A DNA stretch of 64,000 nt from an uncultured virus (IMG/VR IMGVR_UViG_2721755796_000006). Its lineage: Duplodnaviria > Heunggongvirae > Uroviricota > Caudoviricetes. The notes beneath the pieces are model-generated. The model was not told the DNA's origin, did not search any database, and was given only the letters and a program-made list of their open reading frames with translations. The stretch is taken from IMG/VR virus record IMGVR_UViG_2721755796_000006, one strand, 5' to 3'. Shown piece after piece: positions 1-17,838 of the stretch. The first letter of the stretch is position 1. The number at the start of each line of letters is the position of its first letter. Made by a program: the position numbers and the translations under genes.

Positions 1-1620
1 TTATTTCACTTCTTCTTTACCGGGCTTCCAGCAGTTCGCAGGCAAGTTCGGTGACCATGGAAGCAGGTCATCCAGAAAGGCGCGGTTCGTATCATCCAGA
101 TGCTTCGGTATCTCGGTAAGCAGATATTCAAAATAATCATATGGCTTCAGATTGTTTGCTTTTGCCGTCTCTGCAATGCTATAGATGACTGCACTGGACT
201 TGGCACCGGCAACTGTATCGATCATCACCCAGTTCTTCTTACCGATACAGAACCCGCGGATCGACTGCTCGGCGGCATTGTTGTCCATTGGCACTTCACC
301 ATCATCAAGAAACACCTTCAGGTATTTTTCCTGGTTGATGGAATAACTGAAACCTTCCCAAGTCTTGCTTTTCTGTGGTACTTTCGGGATGTTTTCTTTT
401 ACCCACGTGAAATAGGCCTCCACCAGCGGGCGGACGCTTAACTGGCGGCGGGTTTTACGTTCTTCCGACGGAAGATCTTTCAGAAGCTTTTCCTCCCGGT
501 AGATGGCCTGTATCATTGTCAGCGCAAGGTATGCGCGGCTGTCCTTCCGCTTTGCCTTCGGTAGAGCACCCACTGCCTCGTCAAATCTCCGCCTGGCATG
601 GGACCAGCATCCGGCAACCTTTAAATCTTCCCGTTCGGCTTCGATCGTGTGGTAGACCTGATACCCGTCTGTGACGCATACCCCGCTGAAATCCTTCAGG
701 AATTCCCTGGGATGGCTGGCGTTACGTGTCTTCTGATATTCATACAGGACGATCTGTCGCCCTGTGTACATCCGTCCGGTACGGTAAACCCACATATAGC
801 TTTTGCTTCCGGCAGGACGCCCATCTTTATTTACCAGTACAGGCGTTTCATCTGCCTGCAGCACATGATAACCGTACATTTTTTCATGCAGGTAATCGTA
901 GAGAATTGCAAGATAACGGTCTGCACACTGGATTGTCCAGTTTGCCATGCTTTGCCTGGAAATATGCAGACCATAACGCTCAAACTCCTGCTCCTGACGG
1001 TAGAGCGGCACTGCATTGACATATTTGGCATTCATCACGGCTGCTTCCAGTGAAGGGGAAACGAGGCTGCCCCTTAACAGGCTTCCCGGATGAGGTGCCC
1101 TGATGATCTCATCTGTCTCTCTTCCGGCATATACTTTTACATGGTGTTCCTCCACCTCGACTTTTGCCGGGGTAAAACCATACCTGCGGTACACTTCATC
1201 CGGCAGCTGTTTCCATCCTTTCGTCCCGAACAGCGCCGTCAGTTCTTCCTGGGTCATGGAGTGTTCCACTACAACTACCGGTAGCCCTTCCAGATCTTCT
1301 TCCCGTTTTCCCTGCTTCTTCTTCGGTTTCCGGCGGAGGACAGCCTCCGGGGCTTCCTCGGACGCTTCGGCAGCAACGGCCTCTGATTCGTTAAAAAATA
1401 CGATCTTCCCGTCCACTTCCATAAAGGAAATCTGTTCATCTGGTTCATGTGCCTCCGATGATCTTCCGAAACGGTGTCTTTTCAAATCTGCCACCTGTTC
1501 CAAGACCAGCTGGAGCGTATGGTCAATGTTTTCCAGCTGCTCCTGCTGAGACAGAAACAGCTGGATCACTGTTTCTTTGTCAAGGCTGTTCAGTTTTTCC
1601 TCCGTGTATTTTAACGCCAT
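1..1620 (-). CDS. tnpC: IS66 transposase TnpC
   Basis: 539 aa; RHRFGRSSE, LQADETPV, VTDGYQVY, CWSHARRRF, DNNAAEQSIR motifs. Confidence 0.95.
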   Translation of the reverse strand: MALKYTEEKLNSLDKETVIQLFLSQQEQLENIDHTLQLVLEQVADLKRHRFGRSSEAHEPDEQISFMEVDGKIVFFNESEAVAAEASEEAPEAVLRRKPKKKQGKREEDLEGLPVVVVEHSMTQEELTALFGTKGWKQLPDEVYRRYGFTPAKVEVEEHHVKVYAGRETDEIIRAPHPGSLLRGSLVSPSLEAAVMNAKYVNAVPLYRQEQEFERYGLHISRQSMANWTIQCADRYLAILYDYLHEKMYGYHVLQADETPVLVNKDGRPAGSKSYMWVYRTGRMYTGRQIVLYEYQKTRNASHPREFLKDFSGVCVTDGYQVYHTIEAEREDLKVAGCWSHARRRFDEAVGALPKAKRKDSRAYLALTMIQAIYREEKLLKDLPSEERKTRRQLSVRPLVEAYFTWVKENIPKVPQKSKTWEGFSYSINQEKYLKVFLDDGEVPMDNNAAEQSIRGFCIGKKNWVMIDTVAGAKSSAVIYSIAETAKANNLKPYDYFEYLLTEIPKHLDDTNRAFLDDLLPWSPNLPANCWKPGKEEVK

Positions 1621-6523: not shown

Positions 6524-6919
6524 ATGGACATTTCCACTTTAACTCCGGATAAGCAGGTAAAACTTCAGTACTGGCTGGACGTGATCCGGCAATGCAGAGC
6601 CTCCGGTCTGACGAACCAGGCATGGTGCGAACAGCATGATATCTCTTTAAAAAGTTATTATTACTGGATTGCAAAGATCCGGAAGCTGGCTCTTGAAGAA
6701 CTGCCCAGAAAGAATCATGGATGCAGGCCGGTAATGGAGCGGACTGTGTTGCTGCCGGATGCGGCTCCGGAATTTACAGAGGTATCCCTTCGCGGCAGAC
6801 AGGATTCCTGTGCCGCCCCCGCAGCAGTACTCCATATTGATTCTGTGACTGTTGACCTCTTTGAAGATACTCCCCGCGAGTTGCTGGAGGCCATCCTGAA
6901 AGCAGTGCGGTCATGTTAG
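6524..6919 (+). CDS. tnpA: IS66 accessory protein TnpA
   Basis: WLDVIRQCRASGLTNQAWCEQHDISLKSYYYW. Confidence 0.92.
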   Translation: MDISTLTPDKQVKLQYWLDVIRQCRASGLTNQAWCEQHDISLKSYYYWIAKIRKLALEELPRKNHGCRPVMERTVLLPDAAPEFTEVSLRGRQDSCAAPAAVLHIDSVTVDLFEDTPRELLEAILKAVRSC

Positions 6920-7287
6920 GCGACCTCTCCCGGGTAGAAAAGATCTATCTGCGCGCCGGGTACACAGATATGAGAAAACAGCTGGACGGCCTGGTGGATA
7001 TCATCCAGTACAGCTTTCAGCTTGACCCTTACAGCAACTCCCTGTTCCTTTTCTGCGGGAAACGTGCGGACCGGATCAAGGCAGTCCATTATGAAGGAGA
7101 CGGCTTCTGCCTTTTCTATAAGCGCTACGAAAACGGCCGTCTCCAGTGGCCGCGCACGGGTGAAGAAGCCAGACAGATCTCCCATCAGCAGCTCCGCTGG
7201 CTGTTGGAAGGCCTGAATCCGGAGCAGCCCAAAGCAGTCCGGAAATGGACTCCCCAAAAGACCGGAAAAGTCGAAAATTCCTTATAA
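6913..7287 (+). CDS. tnpB: IS66 accessory protein TnpB (Orf2)
   Basis: GYTDMRKQLDGL...LFCGKRADRIK...GDGFCLFYKR. Confidence 0.95.
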   Translation: MLGDLSRVEKIYLRAGYTDMRKQLDGLVDIIQYSFQLDPYSNSLFLFCGKRADRIKAVHYEGDGFCLFYKRYENGRLQWPRTGEEARQISHQQLRWLLEGLNPEQPKAVRKWTPQKTGKVENSL

Positions 7288-7318
7288 ATACTGGAATATC
7301 CTGCTGTTTTATGGTACA

Positions 7319-8887
7319 ATGGATTCATCATTACAGGAAGGTTTTCAGCCCATGCCGGACACAGAACAGGAGTACAAAAAGCAGATCAAAGAACTGGAAC
7401 AGCAGGTCCGGCTCCTGAAGGAGCAGGTTGATTTCCTTACCCGTAAACTTTATGGGACAAAATCAGAAAAGACGTCTGCCTTCGAAATAGCGGGGCAGAT
7501 GTCTCTTTTTAATGAAATAGAATCCTGTGCCGCTCCGGATGTACACGAGCCGGACCTGGTCGAAGTCGAAAAACATCTACGTAAAAGGAAGTACGCAGGC
7601 CAGCGGGAAAAACTGATCAAAGACCTTCCCCGCAGCAAAGTGCTCCATACGATCGATGAAAGTGAACAGATCTGTGAAAGGTGCGGGGGTGCCATGGTAA
7701 AAGTCGGTGAGGAGTTTGTCCGTACCGAGGTACAGTTCATTCCTGCACGCCTCAAAGTGATTGACCACTACCGGGAAACCTATGAATGCAGGACATGCCG
7801 CAAAAACAGAACACCTTATATGGAGAAGTCCCCGGTGCCCTGTCCCCCGGTCATGCATTCCCTTGCGTCTGCTTCCACAATCGCATGGCTCATCCATCAG
7901 AAGTTTGAACTGGGCATTCCATTATACCGCCAGGAAAAGGAATGGGAGGCCCTGGGCCTTTCTTTAAGCAGGGCGACGATGTCGAACTGGCTTCTGACAG
8001 TCTACCGGGACTGGCTTTCCCATGTGGTCGGTCATCTCAGAGAGGAACTTCTGAAACAGAAGTATCTGCATATCGATGAGACTCACGTACAGGTGCTGAA
8101 GGAATCAGGGAGGAAGAACACTTCGGATTCTTATATGTGGGTATATTGCAGCATCAGGGACTGTAAACGGCCAGTCAGGTATTTTGAGTACCAGCCGGGG
8201 AGAGGTGGAAAATATCCGGAAGCATTTTTAAAGGGTTATACCGGATATATCCATACGGATGCTTATTCCGGGTACAATGGAGTCAGGGATGTCACAAGAT
8301 GCCTGTGCTACACCCATCTGCGCCGCGCTTTTGTAGACGCGCTGCCAAAAGACATCCATGACCCGAAAGCTTCAAAACCCGCGGAAGCGGTCGTTCGTCT
8401 GAATAAGCTGTTTGAGATAGAAAAGGAACTGGACGGCCTTCCCCCGGAACAGAAGAAAAAAGAACGGATGAACCGCGAGAGACCACTTCTCGAGGCTTTC
8501 TGGTCGTGGGCGGAGATAAACTCTGCCGGAGAACTTCCAAAGTCGAAGCTCCATACAGCTTTCCATTATGCCCTGAACAACCGCCAGGAATTCTTCAATT
8601 ATCTGGAAGACGGGCACTGTTCGATCAGCAACTCACTTGCTGAAAACTGTATCCGTCCATTCGTGATCGGCCGGAAAAACTGGCTGTTTACCGGAAGTCC
8701 GAAGGGTGCTGCCGCAAGTGCAGGGATCTACACTCTGGTCGAGACAGCGAAAGCCAATGGACTGGATGCAATGAAATATATCAAATATATCCTGTCAGAT
8801 ATGCCAGGGAGTACATTTCTTGAAAATCCGGAATATCTGGATGACTATCTGCCATGGGAGCCCATGGTGCAGGAACGTTGCCGATGA
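7319..8887 (+). CDS. tnpC: IS66 transposase TnpC
   Basis: LYGTKSEK, Zn ribbon CERCG..CRTC, HIDETHV, HTDAYSGY, SNSLAENCIRP; true start may be slightly downstream. Confidence 0.95.
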   Translation: MDSSLQEGFQPMPDTEQEYKKQIKELEQQVRLLKEQVDFLTRKLYGTKSEKTSAFEIAGQMSLFNEIESCAAPDVHEPDLVEVEKHLRKRKYAGQREKLIKDLPRSKVLHTIDESEQICERCGGAMVKVGEEFVRTEVQFIPARLKVIDHYRETYECRTCRKNRTPYMEKSPVPCPPVMHSLASASTIAWLIHQKFELGIPLYRQEKEWEALGLSLSRATMSNWLLTVYRDWLSHVVGHLREELLKQKYLHIDETHVQVLKESGRKNTSDSYMWVYCSIRDCKRPVRYFEYQPGRGGKYPEAFLKGYTGYIHTDAYSGYNGVRDVTRCLCYTHLRRAFVDALPKDIHDPKASKPAEAVVRLNKLFEIEKELDGLPPEQKKKERMNRERPLLEAFWSWAEINSAGELPKSKLHTAFHYALNNRQEFFNYLEDGHCSISNSLAENCIRPFVIGRKNWLFTGSPKGAAASAGIYTLVETAKANGLDAMKYIKYILSDMPGSTFLENPEYLDDYLPWEPMVQERCR

Positions 8888-8989
8888 CCACTGCCCTTTT
8901 AGTATAAGAGGCTGGTGGTTATTTTTCTATCCACTATCTTATTTGACGCTTACTAAATATGTATCTCTGCTACCAACATATAATGCTTT

Positions 8990-9028
8990 AAAAGCCATGT
9001 CTGTAAACATACTGATATGGCTTTTTTT
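8990..9028 (+). terminator. Intrinsic terminator-like hairpin
   Basis: AAAAGCCATGTC / GATATGGCTTTTTTT. Confidence 0.55.
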
Positions 9029-9122
9029 GCGCCATTTTTTAATTGAATTAACCGCTTTGTCGCTTTGCCGTGGTCCTCCTCCGAGCTTGAACCATACAAA
9101 TTCAAACTTGGAGGAGAGGATA

Positions 9123-9614
9123 TTGAAAAATTATACAGATAGCGATTATGCCCTAAACAAGTACAGCGAGGGTATTGTATATAAATTTGCCGATGGAATT
9201 GTCGAAGTCACTCTCGCAGACTATCTGCGGGATAATCCGGGAAAAACAGAAGAAGACTTTGCCAGATTAAAGGCTCTGTCCGATGAAATTTATCATCAAC
9301 AGGATAGGCAGGCTCAGAGGACATGCCGTTTGGATGTAAGCATTCATGGATTAGAGGAAACATATTTTATTGCAACCCCTGCCATAGACACGGAATTAAT
9401 ACAAAAGTACGAAGCAGATAGGGCGGCGGAGGCCGCCTACCACCTGCTACATAGCGGTAAACTGACGGAGATTCAGAAACGCAGGTTTATCCAACATTTC
9501 TTTCAAGGGCTGTCTACCCGGCAGATTGCCAACCTTGAGGGAGTCCATCAGCGGGCTGTTTGGGACAGCTTGATGTGGGCAGAGAAAAAATTAAAAAAAT
9601 TTTATAAGGAATGA
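9123..9614 (+). CDS. Sigma70 region-4-like HTH protein of mobile elements
   Basis: TTG start after GGAGGAGAGG; C-terminal LTEIQKRRFIQHFFQGLSTRQIANLEGVHQRAVWDSL. Confidence 0.8.
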   Translation: MKNYTDSDYALNKYSEGIVYKFADGIVEVTLADYLRDNPGKTEEDFARLKALSDEIYHQQDRQAQRTCRLDVSIHGLEETYFIATPAIDTELIQKYEADRAAEAAYHLLHSGKLTEIQKRRFIQHFFQGLSTRQIANLEGVHQRAVWDSLMWAEKKLKKFYKE

Positions 9615-9692
9615 CTCGTCACCCCCCTTGTTTTTTGACGTTAGGTGAAGGCGTTTTTTAGATGTCTTTCCTGCACATTGCCAACTGCATAT

Positions 9693-10000
9693 AGGTGTGG
9701 CAGATACACGTTGACAGGTCGGGAAACCGGAAGCGACACGCTGGGACGCGCCAAGACGATGTGTTTATTAATTTTCGTAACACATTCCGAGCGATACCGT
9801 CTGCGGTAGTTACGCCCTATGGTGGGGTGGATTGCGACAACCCCTGTCACAGATCATGATACTTCTGCTGAGAACCAGCAGCCCTGAGAAACGGGAAAAT
9901 GCATCACCCTCATTTGAGAAAGAATGAGGGGCGGCTTTTATGGTGTCCGTGGGAAATAATATGAATTGCTACCCAAACCAGCGGAACGTTTGCCACACCT
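9693..10000 (+). ncRNA. Candidate large structured RNA (strand inferred)
   Basis: Closing helix AGGTGTGGCA (9693-9702)/TGCCACACCT (9991-10000); inner helix TGACAGG (9712-18)/CCTGTCA (9843-49); at least five local hairpins. Confidence 0.5.
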
Positions 10001-10139
10001 TTGAATGATATAAACCCCTATTGGGGCGATAGAAATCATGCGGCGGCTCAGGCATTTTTGTCAGCAGACATCCAAACCAACCCTGCCCCGCCGCATTCTT
10101 GTGTCGCTCCTTTAGGCTTCAAAGGAGGCATAAAATTAC

Positions 10140-12383
10140 ATGGAAGAAGAAATCATCCACTGCACGGCGGATATTCAAAATAAGATTTATGAGGCTGGCC
10201 TGTTCCGGCCGGAGGAAAAGGTAGTGCTCGCCACCAAGGGCTGTGTGCTACTGGAGCATTTCACAGGCAAGACATACAGCTACCGCATGGTGGATTTAAC
10301 GACCTTAAAGGCAAAACGCCTGTTTTCCCGCCAAAAGCCACTCACACAGGAGGGCTATGAACGGGCAATCGAGAAAATGCTGGCATTGGCGCCAGAAACG
10401 CCGGTACAGGAGGACAAGCGGGAAAGAGCCGAAACGCTCCTGGCCCATGTGTTCACAGACATATTGCCCCGGCATGGAATGGTTCTCAGGGAAAACCAGC
10501 TTTCCCTTGCCCTGTCTATGCTGGACGCGATCTGGGACGGTAAGGTGGCATTGTGCGAGGCAGAGGTGGGAACCGGAAAGACCCATGCCTATATCCTTTC
10601 GGCCACGGTGTACCGCCTTTTCAACCCCGGTGCGCAGGCCGTACTCATTTCCACATCAACCATTGCCCTGCAACGGGCGCTGACCGAGGAATATATCCCG
10701 CAGATATCCGGCATCCTCATGGAACACCGGATTATCGACCGGCCGCTGACCTTTGCGGTGCGCAAGGGGAAAGCCCACTATGCCTGTTTTGACCGGGTGA
10801 GGAACTACCTGTCCTCCCTCCGGCATAATGACCGCCCGGAGGATCGGGAGCTGATGGAAACCCTGACGGCGCTTGTCGCCGGGAACAGTACTTTTGATTT
10901 AGACGCCCTGACCCTGACCAATTACGTCAAGGAACGTATCTGTGTGGAACGCTGCCATTACCATTGTAATCTTTCCGCACTCTGCCCTTACCGCAGTTTC
11001 CTGCGGCGGACAAGAACGGCGGGCTATGATTTTCAGATCGTCAACCACAACCTTGTGCTGGCGGATATATTAAGCCAAAAAGGGGGAAGAAGCAGACTGC
11101 TCCCGCCCAGCGGCCTGATGGTTTGTGACGAGGCCCATAAGCTGCTGGACGCCGCAAGGAAGATGTACGGCATGGTGTTTTGCAGCACGGAGCTGGAACA
11201 GGTTGCGGCCAGTGTGTGCCGTGCGGCTGTTTCCAGTACTGACAAAAAGGAAATCCTGCACTTACGCGGGGAAATGCTGCGGCTGAACACCCTGCTCTTT
11301 GAAACACTGAAGCAGGAGGCCGGAGCCAAATACGATAAAACCAGTCAGGCAGTCCGCTTTACTCCGGCTGTCACACGGATCCTACGGGCGCTGGCAGTGG
11401 TGTTAGGCAGGCTGTCATCCTGTTTCCAGACCGCAAAGCGCTATACGCTGCTTGCCAGCCGTATCGACCAGAAACAGGAAAAACTCATGGTCCTGCTGGA
11501 ACACGCACAGTCAATCTGCTGGCTGGAGCATACCGGCGTTACCTCCTGTCAGGTCTGTGCGCTGCCCAAGGAACTGGATTATCTGCTTTACGAGGATATT
11601 TGGAACAGTGACATCCCCTGTGTCCTGACCTCGGCTACTCTGTCCATCGGCGGCGATTTCAGCCATTTCATGCACCAGACGGGGATTGACCTGTTGGAAC
11701 AGAACCGGCTCCTGATGACCAGCAAAGCGTCCCCCTTTGATTATGAAAACCATGCCCTGCTGTATCTGCCGGATTGTATGCCGTTCCCGGACACAAAAAA
11801 CAGCGCCTACATGACAGCGGTACTTAAGCAGCTCACGGAACTGATCCGGCAGAGCCATGGACATACGCTGGTACTGTTCACGTCTTACCGGATGATGGAG
11901 ATTGTATATCAGGAGTTGTCTAAGCCGCAGGCGGTGGATTATCCGCTGTTCTGCATGGGCAGGGGGCGGCTGGCAGCACTATCTGCCTTCCGAAAGAGCG
12001 GAAACGGCGTGCTGCTGGCAAGCGACAGCGCCGGTGAGGGTATCGACCTTGCAGGGGATATTTTATCCTCCCTTGTGGTGGTGAAGCTGCCGTTCCCCAT
12101 GCCTGACCCGGTATCGGAATATGAACGTTCCCTCCATGATGACTTTCACAGTTATTTATCCGAGAACATTGTGCCGAGTATGTTGATTAAATTGCGCCAG
12201 TGGATCGGACGCGGCATACGCCGGGAAACGGACACCTGCGTGTTCTCCATCCTCGACAGCCGTGCCAGAGGACGGTATCGAAGCGATATATTGGCCGCCC
12301 TGCCTGATATGCCGGTTACTGACCGGATCGATGACGTGGGGCGGTTTCTTTTGGAGAAAAAGTCGGATGCCTACTTTCAGTGA
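10140..12383 (+). CDS. DinG-family ATP-dependent helicase
   Basis: Q motif LRENQ, Walker A AEVGTGKT, Cys cluster, CDEAH, TSATL, GEGIDL, QWIGRGIR. Confidence 0.92.
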   Translation: MEEEIIHCTADIQNKIYEAGLFRPEEKVVLATKGCVLLEHFTGKTYSYRMVDLTTLKAKRLFSRQKPLTQEGYERAIEKMLALAPETPVQEDKRERAETLLAHVFTDILPRHGMVLRENQLSLALSMLDAIWDGKVALCEAEVGTGKTHAYILSATVYRLFNPGAQAVLISTSTIALQRALTEEYIPQISGILMEHRIIDRPLTFAVRKGKAHYACFDRVRNYLSSLRHNDRPEDRELMETLTALVAGNSTFDLDALTLTNYVKERICVERCHYHCNLSALCPYRSFLRRTRTAGYDFQIVNHNLVLADILSQKGGRSRLLPPSGLMVCDEAHKLLDAARKMYGMVFCSTELEQVAASVCRAAVSSTDKKEILHLRGEMLRLNTLLFETLKQEAGAKYDKTSQAVRFTPAVTRILRALAVVLGRLSSCFQTAKRYTLLASRIDQKQEKLMVLLEHAQSICWLEHTGVTSCQVCALPKELDYLLYEDIWNSDIPCVLTSATLSIGGDFSHFMHQTGIDLLEQNRLLMTSKASPFDYENHALLYLPDCMPFPDTKNSAYMTAVLKQLTELIRQSHGHTLVLFTSYRMMEIVYQELSKPQAVDYPLFCMGRGRLAALSAFRKSGNGVLLASDSAGEGIDLAGDILSSLVVVKLPFPMPDPVSEYERSLHDDFHSYLSENIVPSMLIKLRQWIGRGIRRETDTCVFSILDSRARGRYRSDILAALPDMPVTDRIDDVGRFLLEKKSDAYFQ

Positions 12384-12430
12384 GCGGGTATCCGGCTTTT
12401 GCAAAACGGGATGGAAAAGAGGAGGAGACC

Positions 12431-12694
12431 ATGGGCGGTTATGATTTATCCGAAATGGATTTACAGGAATTAAAACAGGTGGATGTGCGGACGGTCGATC
12501 CCGACACGCTTGTGGATATAAGAGAAATCGAAATTGACAGGACACTTCCCAAAGGAGAGCGGATACAGGAATTTATCCGGCAGATCAGGAATCCGTACTG
12601 CTTTCGGGTGGGAAAGGTCGCCGTCAGCGTGGGTTACGCAGAGGGCGGCGCTACCTTTGAACAGCGGATGGAACACTATCTGCAAACTCTGTGA
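12431..12694 (+). CDS. DUF6870-like small protein typically preceding recombinase clusters
   Basis: VDPDTLVDIREIEID...ERIQEFIRQIRNPYCFRVG; ATG after GAGGAG. Confidence 0.75.
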   Translation: MGGYDLSEMDLQELKQVDVRTVDPDTLVDIREIEIDRTLPKGERIQEFIRQIRNPYCFRVGKVAVSVGYAEGGATFEQRMEHYLQTL

Positions 12695-12877
12695 GGAATC
12701 AAAATGAATATAGCAAATCAGGCTTTTGGATTTCAGAAATTTGTCTGGACGCGGAGAAAATTTTGTGGTAAGCTGAGTCACAGATCGCAGGGGCTGGGTA
12801 AAACCCTGTGATACAGGACTTGCGGTAAAACTCCCAATCCATTTTCTGAAATTCAGAAGCGATTAGGAGAATACCGA

Positions 12878-14545
12878 ATGGATACACAGGAACTTTTACA
12901 GCAATACGACGGAGATATGTACCTCCGTATTTCCCATGAGGACGGCGACAAAGCCGAAAGTGACAGTATCGCAAACCAGCGGGATTTGATTACAGCCTTT
13001 TTGGAAAAACACCCTGAAATCACCCTTCGCAAAGTATGGGTTGATGATGGGTATACCGGAGTCAATTTCGACCGGCCTGATTTTATCCGTATGATGGAAT
13101 CGGTCAGAAATAAGAAAACCAACTGCATCATCGTCAAGGACTTTTCAAGGCTTGGCAGAAACTTTATCGAAACGGGAAAATATATCGAAAAAATCTTTCC
13201 GTTCATGGGTGTGCGGTTTATTTCTGTCAATGATGATTATGACAGCGCAAAGCCGCGAACCGCATCGGACAATCTGATAGTGCCGGTAAAAAATCTGATG
13301 AATGATGCCTACTGCCGGGATATTTCCATCAAGATACGGAGCCATCAGGACATTAAGCGCAGGAAAGGGCAGTTTATCGCACCCTTCGCTATGTTTGGCT
13401 ACCTGAAAGACCCGGAGGATAAGCACCATCTCATTATTGATGAGTTTGCGGCAGGCGTGGTGCAGGATATGTTCCATCTGATACTGGAGGGATATTCCTC
13501 GGAAGCGATTGCCGACCGCCTGAACGAACAAGGCATCCCCTCTCCCCTTGAATATAAGAGGCTGCTGGGGAGCACCTATAAGACACCCTTCCGGCGTAAT
13601 CCCAAAGCGGTGTGGACAGCAACTGCCGTTCTCCGCATTTTGAAAAACCCCGTCTATATCGGAACGCTGGAACAGGGGAAACGCAGCAGTCCCAATTACA
13701 AAGTAAAAAAGCAGTTTGCCGTGCCGGAGGAGCAGTGGGCGGTAAAGGAAAACACCCACGAACCGGCGGTCAGCCGTGATACCTTTGAGAATGTGGCAAA
13801 GATCCTGCGCACAGACACCCGGACGGCACCCGGTGAGGAAACGGTTTTCCCGTTGGGAGGGCTTCTCTACTGTGCTGACTGCGGGCGGAGCATGGTGCGA
13901 AAGAACAACTCCACCGCAGATAAGCCCTATTATTACTATATCTGTTCAGGCAGCAAGGAAAAGAGCGGCTGTAAAAGCCACAGCATCCGTGACATTCTGC
14001 TGGAACAGGCCGTTTTTGCGGTTGTGCGGGAGCATATCCGTTCTGTCCTTGATGTGGAACAGATACTTACCGCAATTACAAAGCTGCCCTACACCAGCCG
14101 TCAGATAAAAAAGATGGATGAACGGCTCAAAGCAAAGCGGGACGAGGTGGAAAAATACCAGCTCTACCGCATGAAACTCCACGAGGACTACATGGATGGC
14201 ATCATTTCCCGTGAGGATTATATCGCTTTTGGCAAACGGTATGACCTGAAAGCACAGAACGCCGGAGAAGCGATCCTTTCTCTGGAACAGGAAATAGACC
14301 GGCTTGTGGAGGGGAAATCCGAGGAACAGAAATGGATTGCCTATTTCAAACAGTATCAGGATATTGAGGAACTGAACCGTAAGCTGGCGGTGGAACTGAT
14401 TGACCGCATCTTAGTCTTTGAAAATCAGCGGATAAACATCAAGTTCAAATTTCAGTTTGAGTATGACAGTGCGATGTCACTTATACAGAGCGTGGAGCGT
14501 ATCAATCCGGCTCTGACCGTATCATCCGGAAGGGAGGCGGTGTGA
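12878..14545 (+). CDS. Large serine recombinase 1
   Basis: YLRIS catalytic motif, DDGYTG, KDFSRLGRN, recombinase domain, Zn ribbon CADCG. Confidence 0.95.
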   Translation: MDTQELLQQYDGDMYLRISHEDGDKAESDSIANQRDLITAFLEKHPEITLRKVWVDDGYTGVNFDRPDFIRMMESVRNKKTNCIIVKDFSRLGRNFIETGKYIEKIFPFMGVRFISVNDDYDSAKPRTASDNLIVPVKNLMNDAYCRDISIKIRSHQDIKRRKGQFIAPFAMFGYLKDPEDKHHLIIDEFAAGVVQDMFHLILEGYSSEAIADRLNEQGIPSPLEYKRLLGSTYKTPFRRNPKAVWTATAVLRILKNPVYIGTLEQGKRSSPNYKVKKQFAVPEEQWAVKENTHEPAVSRDTFENVAKILRTDTRTAPGEETVFPLGGLLYCADCGRSMVRKNNSTADKPYYYYICSGSKEKSGCKSHSIRDILLEQAVFAVVREHIRSVLDVEQILTAITKLPYTSRQIKKMDERLKAKRDEVEKYQLYRMKLHEDYMDGIISREDYIAFGKRYDLKAQNAGEAILSLEQEIDRLVEGKSEEQKWIAYFKQYQDIEELNRKLAVELIDRILVFENQRINIKFKFQFEYDSAMSLIQSVERINPALTVSSGREAV

Positions 14546-14546
14546 C

Positions 14547-16253
14547 ATGGCAAGGAAAAGCAGATTCAGGGTGCCCGTGCAGGAAAAACCGAAACTGCGG
14601 GTGTATAGCACAGGGGCGTATGTGCGTCTTTCCGTGCTGGACGGCCATCAGTGCGACAGTGATTCCATTGAAAATCAGGAAGCCCTTGTCCGGGCATATG
14701 TCGAAAGTGACCCCAGCCTTTCCCTCTTCTCCGTCTATTCAGACAATGGGGAAACAGGGGTGGATTTTGAACGGGATGATTTTGAACGCTTGCTTGATGA
14801 TATACGGGCGGGCAAGGTGGATTGCGTCATCGTCAAAGACCTTTCACGTTTTGGACGGAATTACATAGAGGCCGGTGAGTATTTAGAGAAGATATTTCCC
14901 TTTATGGGAGTCCGTTTCATAGCGGTGAATGACGGTTATGACAGCATTGACCCAGCGGCCTCGGACAGCCTTTCCATGCACTTAAAAAATCTGGTGAACG
15001 ATGTATATGCCCGTGACATCTCACAGAAAATCTGCCCCGTGCTGCAAGAGAAGCAGGAACGGGGGGAGTTTATCGGCAACTGGGCGGCATATGGCTACCT
15101 GAAATCGGCGGAGGATAAGCACCGCCTTGTGGTGGACGAAGAAACAGCCCCGGTTGTCCGCGACATCTTTCAGTGGCGCTTAATCGGTATGGACTATCAG
15201 GAAATCGCAAAAAGGCTGACCGAGCTGGGGATTCCATCCCCCAGCCGTTACCGTTTTGAAAAAGGGATGGTGAAGTCCAAACGTTTTGCGGCTTCCGTCT
15301 GGACGGGACAGGTCATTAAAAACATGGTCCGAAGTGAGGTTTACTTAGGCCATGTGGTGCAGGGTAAGACCCGCAAGGCGCTTTGGAAAGGACAGAAACG
15401 CACTACCCAGCCGAGAGAAAAGTGGACGGTCGTAAAAAATACCCACGAAGCGATTATTGACCGGCAGACCTTTGACGAGGTACAGAGGATGGTGGAACAG
15501 GATAAGCAGATGTTTGATGACAGACAGGGGGCTTTCCCGGAAATCATTAATCCTGAAAACATCTTAAAAGGGCTTGTTTATTGTGGGGACTGTGGGAGAA
15601 AACTTGTACGTCAGAGAAGTGTCCACGAAAGAAAAGTTAAGAACCCCGGAATCCATGTGCGGTATTTTTTTTACTGCCATACCCATGCGGAGGACTCCAG
15701 CCGTTGTGTCGGTATCAGGGTGCCGGAGGATACCCTTTTAGAAACTGTTTCCCAAGTGATTCGGTCCCATTTTGCAATGGCGCTGGATATGGACAGGCTG
15801 ATAAAAAGTGCGGGCAGAAAGGCGCTCAATCTTTCTAAAAAGCAGGAAATCCTCCGCCGTATCATGCAGGCAGAGGAACAGCTTGACCGGATTGCCCATC
15901 TGCGGGAAACTCTCTATGATGATTATTTAGACCACCTGATGAATGAGCACGACTATCTCTACGCCAGAAACCGTTATATAGAGCAGGAAGAAGCACAGAG
16001 AGCGCTGCTGGAAGAACTGGAAGCACAGAATGCGGCTGTCAGGGAACCGGGAACCGGTAAACCGGCGTGGCTCAGGGCGCTGCTCGCTGTCCATGAGGCA
16101 CCGGAACTGACACGGGGGATGGCGCTGGAACTGATTGATCGGATTACCGTATACAGCAGCTCCAACATCGCCGTGCGGCTCCGATTTGAGGACGAATATG
16201 AGTGCATGAAGGAATGGCTGTTCCCTCCGATGGGGGTGGAAGCCAGTGAATAA
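14547..16253 (+). CDS. Large serine recombinase 2
   Basis: YVRLS, DNGETG, KDLSRFGRN, CGDCG. Confidence 0.95.
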   Translation: MARKSRFRVPVQEKPKLRVYSTGAYVRLSVLDGHQCDSDSIENQEALVRAYVESDPSLSLFSVYSDNGETGVDFERDDFERLLDDIRAGKVDCVIVKDLSRFGRNYIEAGEYLEKIFPFMGVRFIAVNDGYDSIDPAASDSLSMHLKNLVNDVYARDISQKICPVLQEKQERGEFIGNWAAYGYLKSAEDKHRLVVDEETAPVVRDIFQWRLIGMDYQEIAKRLTELGIPSPSRYRFEKGMVKSKRFAASVWTGQVIKNMVRSEVYLGHVVQGKTRKALWKGQKRTTQPREKWTVVKNTHEAIIDRQTFDEVQRMVEQDKQMFDDRQGAFPEIINPENILKGLVYCGDCGRKLVRQRSVHERKVKNPGIHVRYFFYCHTHAEDSSRCVGIRVPEDTLLETVSQVIRSHFAMALDMDRLIKSAGRKALNLSKKQEILRRIMQAEEQLDRIAHLRETLYDDYLDHLMNEHDYLYARNRYIEQEEAQRALLEELEAQNAAVREPGTGKPAWLRALLAVHEAPELTRGMALELIDRITVYSSSNIAVRLRFEDEYECMKEWLFPPMGVEASE

Positions 16254-17838
16254 AACCTTTGTTATCGTTTTGTATATCCGTATTTCTGTGGAGGACGAGG
16301 ACAGCCGTGAAGGAATCAGGGATGAGAGCAACAGCGTCTCCAACCAGCGTGACCTGCTACGGCGCTTTATCGGGCAGTCCCCGGAGTTTGAGGGCCGCAA
16401 GGTCATGGAACTGTGTGATGACGGATTTTCCGGCACCAGCATGGAACGGCCCAATATGCAGAAACTTTTGCAGAAAGCCAAGGCAAAGGAAATCGACTGT
16501 ATCATCGTAAAGGATTTTTCGCGGTTTGGCAGGGATTATATCACGGTCAGCGACTATGTGGATCAGATATTCCCGTTTCTCGGCATCCGCTTTATTTCGG
16601 TCAACGATGGCTATGACAGCGCCAAAATGAACGGCAAGACCAGCGGCGTGGATATTGCTTTCCGCAACGTGATTTACAGCTATTACAGCAAGGACTTGTC
16701 CCTGAAAGTAAAAAGCGGCTTACAGACAAAGGCGCGCAAAGGTGATTTTTTAAGCTCCTTTGCCCCCATAGGCTACCGCAAAGACGAAAAGGACAAAAAC
16801 CGGCTTGTCGCTGATAAGGACAGTGCAGGGATTGTCCGGCGCATTTTTGAACTGGCTGGCGCAGGGATGACCGTGGTGGAAATCACCCGTCTGTTCAATG
16901 CAGAGAAAGTGCCTACCCCCAGCGCCATCAAGAACAGGCAGGGCTATTATCATAAATGGTGGATTGGGGTGAAAGGTGCCGACCTCTGGAATGAGAGCGC
17001 AATCACAAATATTCTGCGGGATGAACGGTATTTAGGTAAGACCATCTACGGCAAGCGATACCGCCCACAGATCGGGAACAGAAAAACCCTTAAAAACAGC
17101 AGGTCGGATTGGATCATTGCAGAGGAACGGCATGAACCGCTCGTCAGTGCAGATGAGTTTCAGAAAGCGCAGGAACATTTGGCGGAATTTGTGGAACGGG
17201 ACTTAGGGCAGGCAGGGATATACCTTTTTACGGATAAACTGCGGTGCGGTCATTGCGGTTATGCCCTTATCAGACGGTCACGTTCCAATCCACAATATTT
17301 TTGCAGGACAAGATACAGGACTACCGGTTTTGGATGTATGGAGGGCAGCGTCAGGGAAAGTGAAATTGCAGACGTTGTGCTGGCTGCCATCCAAGCTTAT
17401 ATAAAAACCCTGATGGACGAGAAGGAACTGCTGCTAAAGGCCGGGAACACGGATACGCTTGCCAGCCTGCAAAAACAGGTCACTTCCTATCAGAGCGCCT
17501 GTGCCAAGATTGATGAGCAGAAAGCTGAACTGTACGATGCGATGGCAGAGGAAAAAATCAGCCGGGAGAAGTACCGGCAGGAACGGGATAAGCTGTCACG
17601 GGGGCAGGCAGAGATGGCACAGCGGGCTGAAGCGGCAGAAGCAGAACTCACAGAACTGCGGAGCAAGCTGGCCGCCGCCAAGCAGGGGGAACCAAAGCTC
17701 ATACGCTATTTACAGGCAGATGCCCTTACACGGCAGATGGTAGTTGACTTTGTGGACTGCGTTTATGTTTACAACGACAAATCCATTCATATCGAGTGGA
17801 GCTTTTCAGAAAAAGGAGAGAAAAATGAATCAGCATAA
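16246..17838 (+). CDS. Large serine recombinase 3
   Basis: YIRIS, DDGFSG, KDFSRFGRD, CGHCG. Confidence 0.95.
   Translation: MNKTFVIVLYIRISVEDEDSREGIRDESNSVSNQRDLLRRFIGQSPEFEGRKVMELCDDGFSGTSMERPNMQKLLQKAKAKEIDCIIVKDFSRFGRDYITVSDYVDQIFPFLGIRFISVNDGYDSAKMNGKTSGVDIAFRNVIYSYYSKDLSLKVKSGLQTKARKGDFLSSFAPIGYRKDEKDKNRLVADKDSAGIVRRIFELAGAGMTVVEITRLFNAEKVPTPSAIKNRQGYYHKWWIGVKGADLWNESAITNILRDERYLGKTIYGKRYRPQIGNRKTLKNSRSDWIIAEERHEPLVSADEFQKAQEHLAEFVERDLGQAGIYLFTDKLRCGHCGYALIRRSRSNPQYFCRTRYRTTGFGCMEGSVRESEIADVVLAAIQAYIKTLMDEKELLLKAGNTDTLASLQKQVTSYQSACAKIDEQKAELYDAMAEEKISREKYRQERDKLSRGQAEMAQRAEAAEAELTELRSKLAAAKQGEPKLIRYLQADALTRQMVVDFVDCVYVYNDKSIHIEWSFSEKGEKNESA

Follow-up and report, generated by a model that had tools for sequence, protein, structure and literature searches.

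We begin by asking what is encoded between the gene of a sigma-like regulator and the gene of a DinG-type helicase in a 64,000-nucleotide stretch of DNA from an uncultured virus of the Caudoviricetes (IMG/VR record IMGVR_UViG_2721755796_000006); this whole stretch is called the window below. An earlier reading of the letters of this DNA, made without database searches (the sequence-only reading), had proposed a large structured RNA in the gap, and had listed an antitermination scaffold, a ribonucleoprotein partner of the sigma-like protein or the helicase, a ribozyme and a folded single-stranded DNA origin as its possible roles. We find that window positions 9693 to 10000 (+ strand) form a multi-helix fold that is closed by a perfect 10-bp helix and is kept in relatives through compensatory changes. 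The 5' domain of this fold, together with a box common to two Rfam motifs, has its homologue, by comparison of sequence and structure, in the canT region of Tn916-type elements, and the RNA is probably a cis-acting processive antiterminator of the canT class.

What does the window itself offer? The segments 9693-9702 and 9991-10000 are exact reverse complements over 10 bp, TGACAGG (9712-9718) is complementary to CCTGTCA (9843-9849), and small hairpins are found as CGG-GAAA-CCG (9720-9729), ATGTGTT/AACACAT (9759-9765/9779-9785), CTGCTG/CAGCAG (9865-9870/9876-9881) and CCCTCA/TGAGGG (9907-9912/9926-9931). The closing helix, the nested helix and most of the hairpins are therefore present where the sequence-only reading had put them, and its remark that there is no credible open reading frame (ORF) agrees with our finding that the ORFs across the folded stretch are only 31-69 residues long. 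Folded as a single sequence, the + strand gives -108.5 kcal/mol (z = -2.45, with 3 of 100 shuffles equally good) and the - strand gives z = -1.55. This would be modest support for a folded RNA, suggestive and not decisive; the real support for the fold comes from the comparison with relatives and not from single-sequence energy.

The next question is "do relatives keep the same helices?" A blastn search with 9673-10140 against plasmid and phage records returns no match. The Rfam family RF03082, to which we return below, occurs in 8 of 151 sampled genomes of the same order (above its cut-off in 6). A search of viral contigs with a two-box sequence pattern gives 13 stretches; inspection by eye accepts 9 and attributes the other 4 to chance in AT-rich coding DNA. 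The same pattern is present in at least 117 stretches of metagenome contigs. Among the matches listed, 142 loci bear the pattern: 76 are of type A (with the upstream junction of the window), 26 of type B (with a different junction), and 40 unclassified, the last being mostly chance matches. Removal of near-duplicates leaves 24 type A sequences, 19 of which are aligned with MAFFT (alignment A1) after dropping L052 (a misfiled type B locus), L081 (a truncated copy), and L011, L019 and L111 (large insertions).

In alignment A1, which is not fitted to any model, 84.8% of the 1135 cells are in standard pairs, compared with 68.0% in shuffled alignments (none of 500 reaches the observed value) and 38-44% when the partners are slid by 1-3 columns. 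Two-sided changes are present in 52 of the 68 pairs, and the covariation score is 0.477, against 0.215 for shuffled and 0.08-0.13 for slid partners. RNAalifold, given no structure, returns P1, P3, P3a, P5, P6 and P8 (46 pairs, 33 with compensatory change). The closing helix can also be judged free of any alignment, by folding each 5' arm against every 3' tail: of the 19 arms, 14 pair best with the tail of their own sequence and 2 rank it second (L009 ranks it third, and L007 and L029 tenth), with a mean energy of -14.7 kcal/mol for own and -8.75 kcal/mol for unrelated partners. A fitted alignment of the 5' domain (32 sequences) has 91.4% of its cells paired, compared with 62.0% shuffled and 32-41% slid, and 24 of 27 pairs compensated, these values coming from a model-fitted alignment that leans toward the model's own structure. 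Covariation among relatives, which the sequence-only reading had proposed as a check, is thus present. Across the alignment G.U cells outnumber A.C cells (104 to 33), and therefore the + strand is the folding strand. A large structured RNA-like element, as in that reading, is supported.

The window at 9674-10003 (+) encodes an ornate RNA of about 310 nucleotides (nt) with nine helices, P1 being the closing one (Table 1). In the unfitted alignment all nine P1 pairs (9/9, 19 sequences) have two-sided changes. A GGUACA-like junction lies between P1 and P2, and P2 is misaligned by MAFFT (68.2% pairing on the unfitted alignment); on the model-fitted alignment it has 89.0% of cells paired and two-sided change in 7 of 7 pairs. 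P3 is paired in 98.0% of cells with two-sided change in 7 of 8 pairs when unfitted, and in 97.8% with 8 of 8 when fitted. It is to the 3' arm of this long-range helix that the bases of a TACCG/CGGTA hairpin belong, a hairpin that the sequence-only reading had proposed and that relatives do not keep. P3a is identical in all 19 sequences and hence shows no covariation, while the P4 hairpin inside it (9759-9785) is of variable length, with a tetraloop-sized turn in its place in L023-type copies. An AUGR sequence stands between the hairpins of the 3' domain and P9. Apart from these, the truncated copy L081 (about 1222-1740, - strand) runs from the 3' arm of P3 onward and is fused to unrelated, coding-looking sequence. 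The type B form has the same 5' box with an inserted hairpin, the same dinG-type 3' domain and a different inner 5' domain; its loci, which include L002, L010, L013, L022, L031-L033, L041, L042, L044 and L049, are placed between sigma-like and helicase genes.

Does the RNA belong to a known family? When the whole window is scanned with cmscan against Rfam 15, the single match above threshold is the dinG RNA (RF03082) at 9855-9939 (+), which scores 54.7 bits, above the gathering score of 46.9, with all 87 model positions (1-87) matched. This motif comes from a 2017 survey of candidate structured RNAs (PMC5737381). The DinG-type helicase gene that starts at 10140, downstream of the RNA, agrees with the placement of dinG RNA. 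It follows from the match that the CTGCTG/CAGCAG and CCCTCATT/AATGAGGG hairpins correspond to the dinG motif already in Rfam, and here the sequence-only reading, which could assign the RNA to no known family, has to be corrected. The 5' two thirds have no Rfam family: neither the 180 nt on the 5' side of the motif nor the 60 nt on its 3' side has an Rfam match. The same reading had named a known Rfam hit as the result that would remove the novelty; the hit removes part of it. The Rfam model consists of three hairpins and covers none of P1-P5, P9 and the 5' box, and in the window these three hairpins are the 3' domain of a much longer fold.

A permissive scan of 9550-10200 adds a sub-threshold match to the pemK RNA (RF02913), at 20.1 bits against a gathering score of 34.8, which does not make the window copy a pemK RNA; besides dinG and pemK, no other Rfam 15 family matches this segment at E<=5. 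The pemK match covers the bases that match dinG. The two motifs have in common a 5' single-stranded AUGAUACUUC box and the first two hairpins, and they differ in the third hairpin, which is short in pemK and long in dinG.

We turn our attention to canT, a cis-acting processive antiterminator RNA of Tn916 (PMC11658703). It is located between the sigma-like orf7/orf8 genes and xis/int (PMC11658703; preprint 10.64898/2026.10.01.756105), is essential to the transfer of Tn916, and overrides heterologous terminators downstream. Its activity is orientation-specific in a chromosomal reporter from which the transfer genes are absent; no other Tn916 gene is needed, and canT supplied in trans is ineffective ("canT acts in cis"). 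Its authors leave sequence and structural analysis aside and state that secondary-structure predictions do not explain their mutants (PMC11658703).

Twelve loci with Tn916-Xis genes are collected and scanned with Rfam. In L146, a pemK RNA lies about 240 nt upstream of xis (63.1 bits), and the order is a 141-residue Sigma70_r4 protein, the RNA, xis and an integrase; in L152, a pemK RNA is found at the cut end. Two annotated plasmid records give named examples. In L154 (pMG2200), a sigma-family gene and a helix-turn-helix (HTH) gene are followed by a 423-nt gap, an excisionase and an integrase, with the pemK RNA within the gap (2546-2643, 57.8 bits). L155 (pCF10) has the same gene order and a pemK RNA at 1598-1698 (55 bits). 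The element of L155 is assigned to the Tn916 type by its annotation and by the fit of the coordinates in the canT paper. As in that paper, an orf5 of 83 codons overlaps xis and runs in the opposite direction (PMC11658703). The published 452-bp active fragment (126-577 after the orf8 stop) corresponds to L155 1441-1892 and contains our predicted RNA (1437-1723) save its first four bases, and the 162-bp deletion corresponds to 1544-1705 (PMC11658703). The inactivating mutation canT(S3), an ATA at +283 after the orf8 stop, falls on 1598-1600, which reads ATA in L155 (PMC11658703). This site is positions 1-3 of the pemK model, that is, the first three bases of the common AUAAUGAUACUUC box, whose window counterpart is AUCAUGAUACUUC (9853-9865).

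The 5' domain can be compared independently of the Rfam motifs. Covariance model R1 describes the 5' domain only (181 positions, 27 pairs) and is trained on 19 dinG-type sequences, with the Tn916-type sequences left out. It matches L155 1437-1612 over the full model length at 54.1 bits (E 8e-12 by a rough calibration), and directly upstream of xis it matches L144, L146 and L145 at 40.7, 38.1 and 32.8 bits; L154 scores 23.9 bits. Across 77 sources R1 has 32 matches at E<=0.001, with one match in the whole 64-kb window and, at the same threshold, none in 12 chance-match control loci. By eye, the 5' box, P1, P2, P3 and a P5-type hairpin are also there in L154 and L155. Together with the AUAAUGAUACUUC box, these are the parts that canT has in common with the window RNA; both lie on the same strand as their flanking genes, after a sigma-region-4 gene and before recombination genes. 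They differ in the 3' domain, which is of pemK type in canT and of dinG type in the window. They differ also in setting, canT lying in a conjugative transposon and reading outward across the joint after excision, the window copy lying at the left end of a prophage and reading inward. Antitermination activity is known for canT, and the window RNA is known from sequence.

Some further observations concern the same loci. The pemK motif, which Rfam files as a cis-regulator of toxin genes, occupies the canT position in elements of the Tn916 type and the vanB-transposon type (L155 1437-1723 and L154 2364-2674), and with the 5' domain upstream of it has the fold architecture of the window RNA. The best Tn916-Xis match, L142, is in an unrelated replication-gene context, where the RNA is absent. 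Near a Tn916-Xis gene, L153 has a sub-threshold match (2907-2947, - strand) to the Rfam ssNA-helicase RNA, with 32.5 bits against 41.5.

How would an antiterminator of this kind serve the prophage? According to our model, the RNA would be transcribed at the head of the long same-strand gene array of the prophage, just after the gene of the sigma-like regulator. The nascent RNA would fold as it emerges and would remain with the transcribing RNA polymerase, which it would make resistant to terminators; one promoter could then serve the helicase, the recombinases and the genes further on. The single-stranded AUAAUGAUACUUC box and the junction sequences would provide the contact surface. Of the roles listed by the sequence-only reading, the antitermination scaffold is the one that the evidence favours, by way of the homology to Tn916 canT, and nothing in the evidence points to a ribozyme.

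The gene context can be compared with this model. The window has, on one strand, the sigma-region-4-like gene, the RNA, the helicase gene, a DUF6870 gene and three serine recombinase genes, and the Tn916-type order for comparison is sigma gene, HTH gene, RNA, xis and int. The window is a prophage: after the recombinases come genes for a single-stranded-DNA-binding protein, a family A polymerase, a VapE-type primase-helicase and an SNF2 helicase, and it further carries terminase, portal, capsid, sheath and tail genes. Of the genes scanned from 10140 to the tail genes at about 46.8 kb, all but few are on the + strand. When genome contigs are searched with the helicase protein, one locus is found (L001, with a helicase that is 99% identical). 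There, about 170 nt separate the end of a host carboxyltransferase gene from the sigma-like gene that follows it, which puts the module at the very edge of the prophage, reading inward; the window has an IS66 copy where L001 has this host gene. L001 has at least two of the three tandem serine recombinases, in the same order. Among 27 loci, a Sigma70_r4 or r4_2 match (E<=0.01) is encoded upstream of the RNA in 17, reaching Pfam's own cut-off in 7, and the other 10 upstream ORFs are kinase, S-layer, protease, ATPase, HTH, coupling-protein or unassigned. The next gene is always downstream of the RNA on the same strand. Downstream ORFs in the 27 loci comprise 15 DEAD/DinG-like helicases, 3 NikA/MobC/relaxase proteins, 3 serine recombinases, 1 chemotaxis protein 500 nt away and 5 unassigned.

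This constancy of place and strand is also what a local cis-regulatory leader would give, that is, an attenuator or a protein- or ligand-sensing 5' untranslated region that sets the expression of the helicase and recombinases with no processive effect on the polymerase. Such a leader would act through a second hairpin (10018-10115) and a hairpin covering the ribosome-binding site, both of which follow the RNA, and the sister motif pemK is filed as cis-regulatory in Rfam. The identity of the downstream gene argues otherwise, because it varies by locus (helicase, relaxase accessory gene, recombinase or none), as do the limitation of the second hairpin to DinG-type loci and the processivity of the homologous Tn916 element on heterologous terminators (PMC11658703). 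We regard a purely local leader as unlikely.

Sequencing runs bear on the same choice. The stretch is found in 20 runs, 8 of which are recorded as RNA, and we compare four RNA runs from three studies, in the form of assembled contigs that show neither ends, strand nor level of a transcript. In three of the four runs, the RNA is on short contigs (9622-10081, 9661-10077 and 9703-10107) with word depths of 367, 27 and 1044, compared with 77, 10 and 17 for the helicase contigs, which start at 10151-10187. The fourth run has one contig from 9696 past 10600. The start at 9622 adjoins adapter letters, and 9300-9607 has no contig cover in the four runs, a lack of cover that is no evidence on expression. 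These contigs are a weak hint of an abundant species that comprises the fold and the next hairpin, and a similarly weak hint of some transcripts or DNA bridging into the helicase gene.

The contigs are also the place to consider a stable RNA of the resident prophage that acts in trans. Like 6S RNA or a ribonucleoprotein scaffold, it might associate with RNA polymerase, the sigma-like protein or the DinG-like helicase. Short contigs of high depth in RNA libraries of three studies would suit such a molecule, as would the ornate fold with its many conserved unpaired positions, the tight linkage to the sigma-like gene and the filing of dinG RNA under "Gene; sRNA" in Rfam. It is at odds with the inactivity of the homologous canT in trans (PMC11658703) and with the fixed position and strand relative to the downstream gene, and we consider it improbable.

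Presence in RNA libraries speaks, in turn, against a fold of single-stranded DNA belonging to the mobile element, for example a single-strand origin or promoter. Comparative methods do not distinguish RNA from single-stranded DNA folds (PMC5737381), and the copies in L007, L009 and L029 are just upstream of relaxase accessory genes, the usual neighbourhood of transfer origins. The window copy is found in a prophage with terminase, portal and tail genes and not in a conjugative element, the fold has GNRA-type loops, and canT is orientation-specific and RNA-like in a chromosomal reporter without transfer genes (PMC11658703). The folded DNA origin of the sequence-only reading is thus disfavoured, and we hold a DNA element of this kind to be very improbable.

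Returning to the canT-class antiterminator, several observations weigh against it. The 3' domain is of dinG type, unlike the pemK type of canT (the pemK scores being those given above). Terminator-like sites downstream are in no excess over shuffles (7 vs 7.1 and 14 vs 17.8). The S3 mutation of canT has little or no effect in a 400-bp fragment, and the box is thus not essential in every construct (PMC11658703). BLASTP gives no similarity between sigma-like proteins of the window type and those of Tn916 (E 0.35), most Pfam region-4 matches are under the curated cut-off, and R1 has no match in type B loci at E<=0.001. At face value, RNA contigs that end at 10077-10107, with the helicase on a separate contig of lower depth in three of the four runs, would fit an attenuated leader or a separate small RNA better than read-through, although contigs cannot reveal RNA ends or levels.

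Other antiterminator RNAs provide a comparison. HK022 put, the Bacillus eps-associated RNA (EAR) and conAn2 of pLS20 resemble our proposal in that a nascent structured RNA modifies its own polymerase at the head of a long phage or conjugative operon (PMC11658703, PMC8191782). They differ in sequence family, the cmscan against all of Rfam having matched the window RNA to dinG and pemK only. In the conAn system, moreover, the RNA is partnered with the ConAn1 protein, in contrast with canT, which needs no other Tn916 gene (PMC11658703, PMC8191782).

What is new in this picture? The dinG RNA motif is already catalogued. In the literature searched, with subscription journals and the supplement of PMC5737381 outside its scope, we find no link of pemK or dinG RNA to canT or to antitermination; nor do we find there the fold over its whole length, on which the same supplement may bear, its reach to pemK-type and canT sequences, or its position in a prophage. 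We would give even chances to a broader proposal, that the dinG and pemK motifs and canT are one superfamily of RNAs of about 300 nt that reprogram RNA polymerase, travel with element-encoded sigma-like factors and serve to switch on element-length transcription units in prophages, conjugative transposons and mobilisable elements of Clostridia and Bacilli. If this is true, the covariation-supported fold would be the first structural model for canT and would explain the failure of the canT deletion and point mutants. The comparison itself gives canT a conserved architecture, ties two uncharacterised Rfam motifs to it and places the class at the head of prophage gene arrays in gut Clostridia as well. 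The function of the dinG and pemK RNAs and the structure of canT thereby become one testable question. The comparison also suggests that mobile elements with resistance and phage genes are commonly controlled at this point, by terminator-proof transcription launched beside a sigma-like factor of their own.

Table 1. Features of the window around the folded RNA, in order of position, with the basis for each
Feature	Position	Strand	Basis or remark
IS66-family copy	1-1620	-	
IS66-family copy (orf1, TnpB-like orf2, transposase)	6524-8887	+	Adjoins the sigma-like gene
Gene of sigma-70 region-4-like protein	8820-9614	+	Pfam Sigma70_r4_2, E 7e-4, 19.6 bits, under the cut-off of 25.7
Hairpin-rich spacer, sigma-like gene to RNA	9617-9672	+	Read by eye
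Conserved 5' box CAYTTGAMAAY...ATAT, unpaired in the model	9676-9692	+	19-sequence alignment
P1, closing helix	9693-9702 with 9991-10000	+	Exact complement, covariation, RNAalifold
P2	9712-9718 with 9843-9849	+	Fitted alignment
P2a, optional hairpin with GAAA loop	9719-9730	+	79.8% of cells paired; missing in 11 of 32 sequences
Junction AAGCGAC	9731-9737	+	Near-invariant columns in alignments A1 and A2
P3, long-range helix, G9803 bulged	9740-9747 with 9799-9807	+	Covariation, RNAalifold
P3a, CGC 9749-9751 with GCG 9791-9793, around CCAAGAC, P4 and CGAGCGA	9749-9793	+	
P5, hairpin with conserved GUGGUG-type loop	9813-9829	+	Two-sided change in 5 of 5 pairs
Conserved junction GAUUGCGAYRAY	9830-9841	+	Alignment
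Conserved single-stranded box, window AUCAUGAUACUUC, family AUAAUGAUACUUC	9853-9865	+	Common to the Rfam dinG and pemK models
Rfam dinG RNA, hairpins P6, P7 and P8, loop UUUGAGAAAGAAU	9855-9939	+	RF03082 match
P9, variable hairpin	9946-9985	+	91.7% of cells paired; two-sided change in 3 of 4 pairs (unfitted)
Second conserved long hairpin with internal loops	10018-10115	+	-49.9 kcal/mol, z = -3.62
Small hairpin, CUCCUUU paired with the AAAGGAG Shine-Dalgarno sequence, then the helicase start codon	10116-10139	+	
Gene of DinG/XPD-type helicase	10140-12383	+	Pfam Helicase_C_2 8.7e-29, DEAD 1.6e-6
DUF6870 gene and three tandem large serine recombinase genes (12878-14545, 14547-16253, 16246-17838)	12380-17838	+	

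A few features in Table 1 need comment. Where the sigma-like gene truly starts is uncertain, its listed ORF sharing bases with the end of the IS66 transposase gene. The spacer that follows may act as a terminator or may already belong to the transcript, at its 5' end, and a simple terminator scan makes no call on it. Simple promoter and terminator scans likewise make no + strand call at 9600-10140 and show no excess elsewhere. In the 5' box, which is the stretch that the sequence-only reading had called boxA-like, columns C3, T5, T6, G7, A10, A11, A16 and A18 are invariant among the 19 sequences. We considered that this box (TTGNNA), with a GTACA-like hexamer 17 nt on, could be a promoter. We reject this, as the intervening P1 arm covaries with its distant partner; a hairpin is moreover inserted within the box in L006, L011 and L154, and the box is therefore not a fixed -35/-10 pair.

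On the 3' side, the second hairpin recurs in L004, L012, L016, L047, L084, L094 and others, all of them DinG-type loci, where by eye the internal-loop sequence is kept and the stems covary. The short RNA-library contigs end within it or just after it (10077, 10081 and 10107), and it may serve in RNA processing, in attenuation or termination, or as a protein site. The small hairpin next to it may mask the translation of the helicase.

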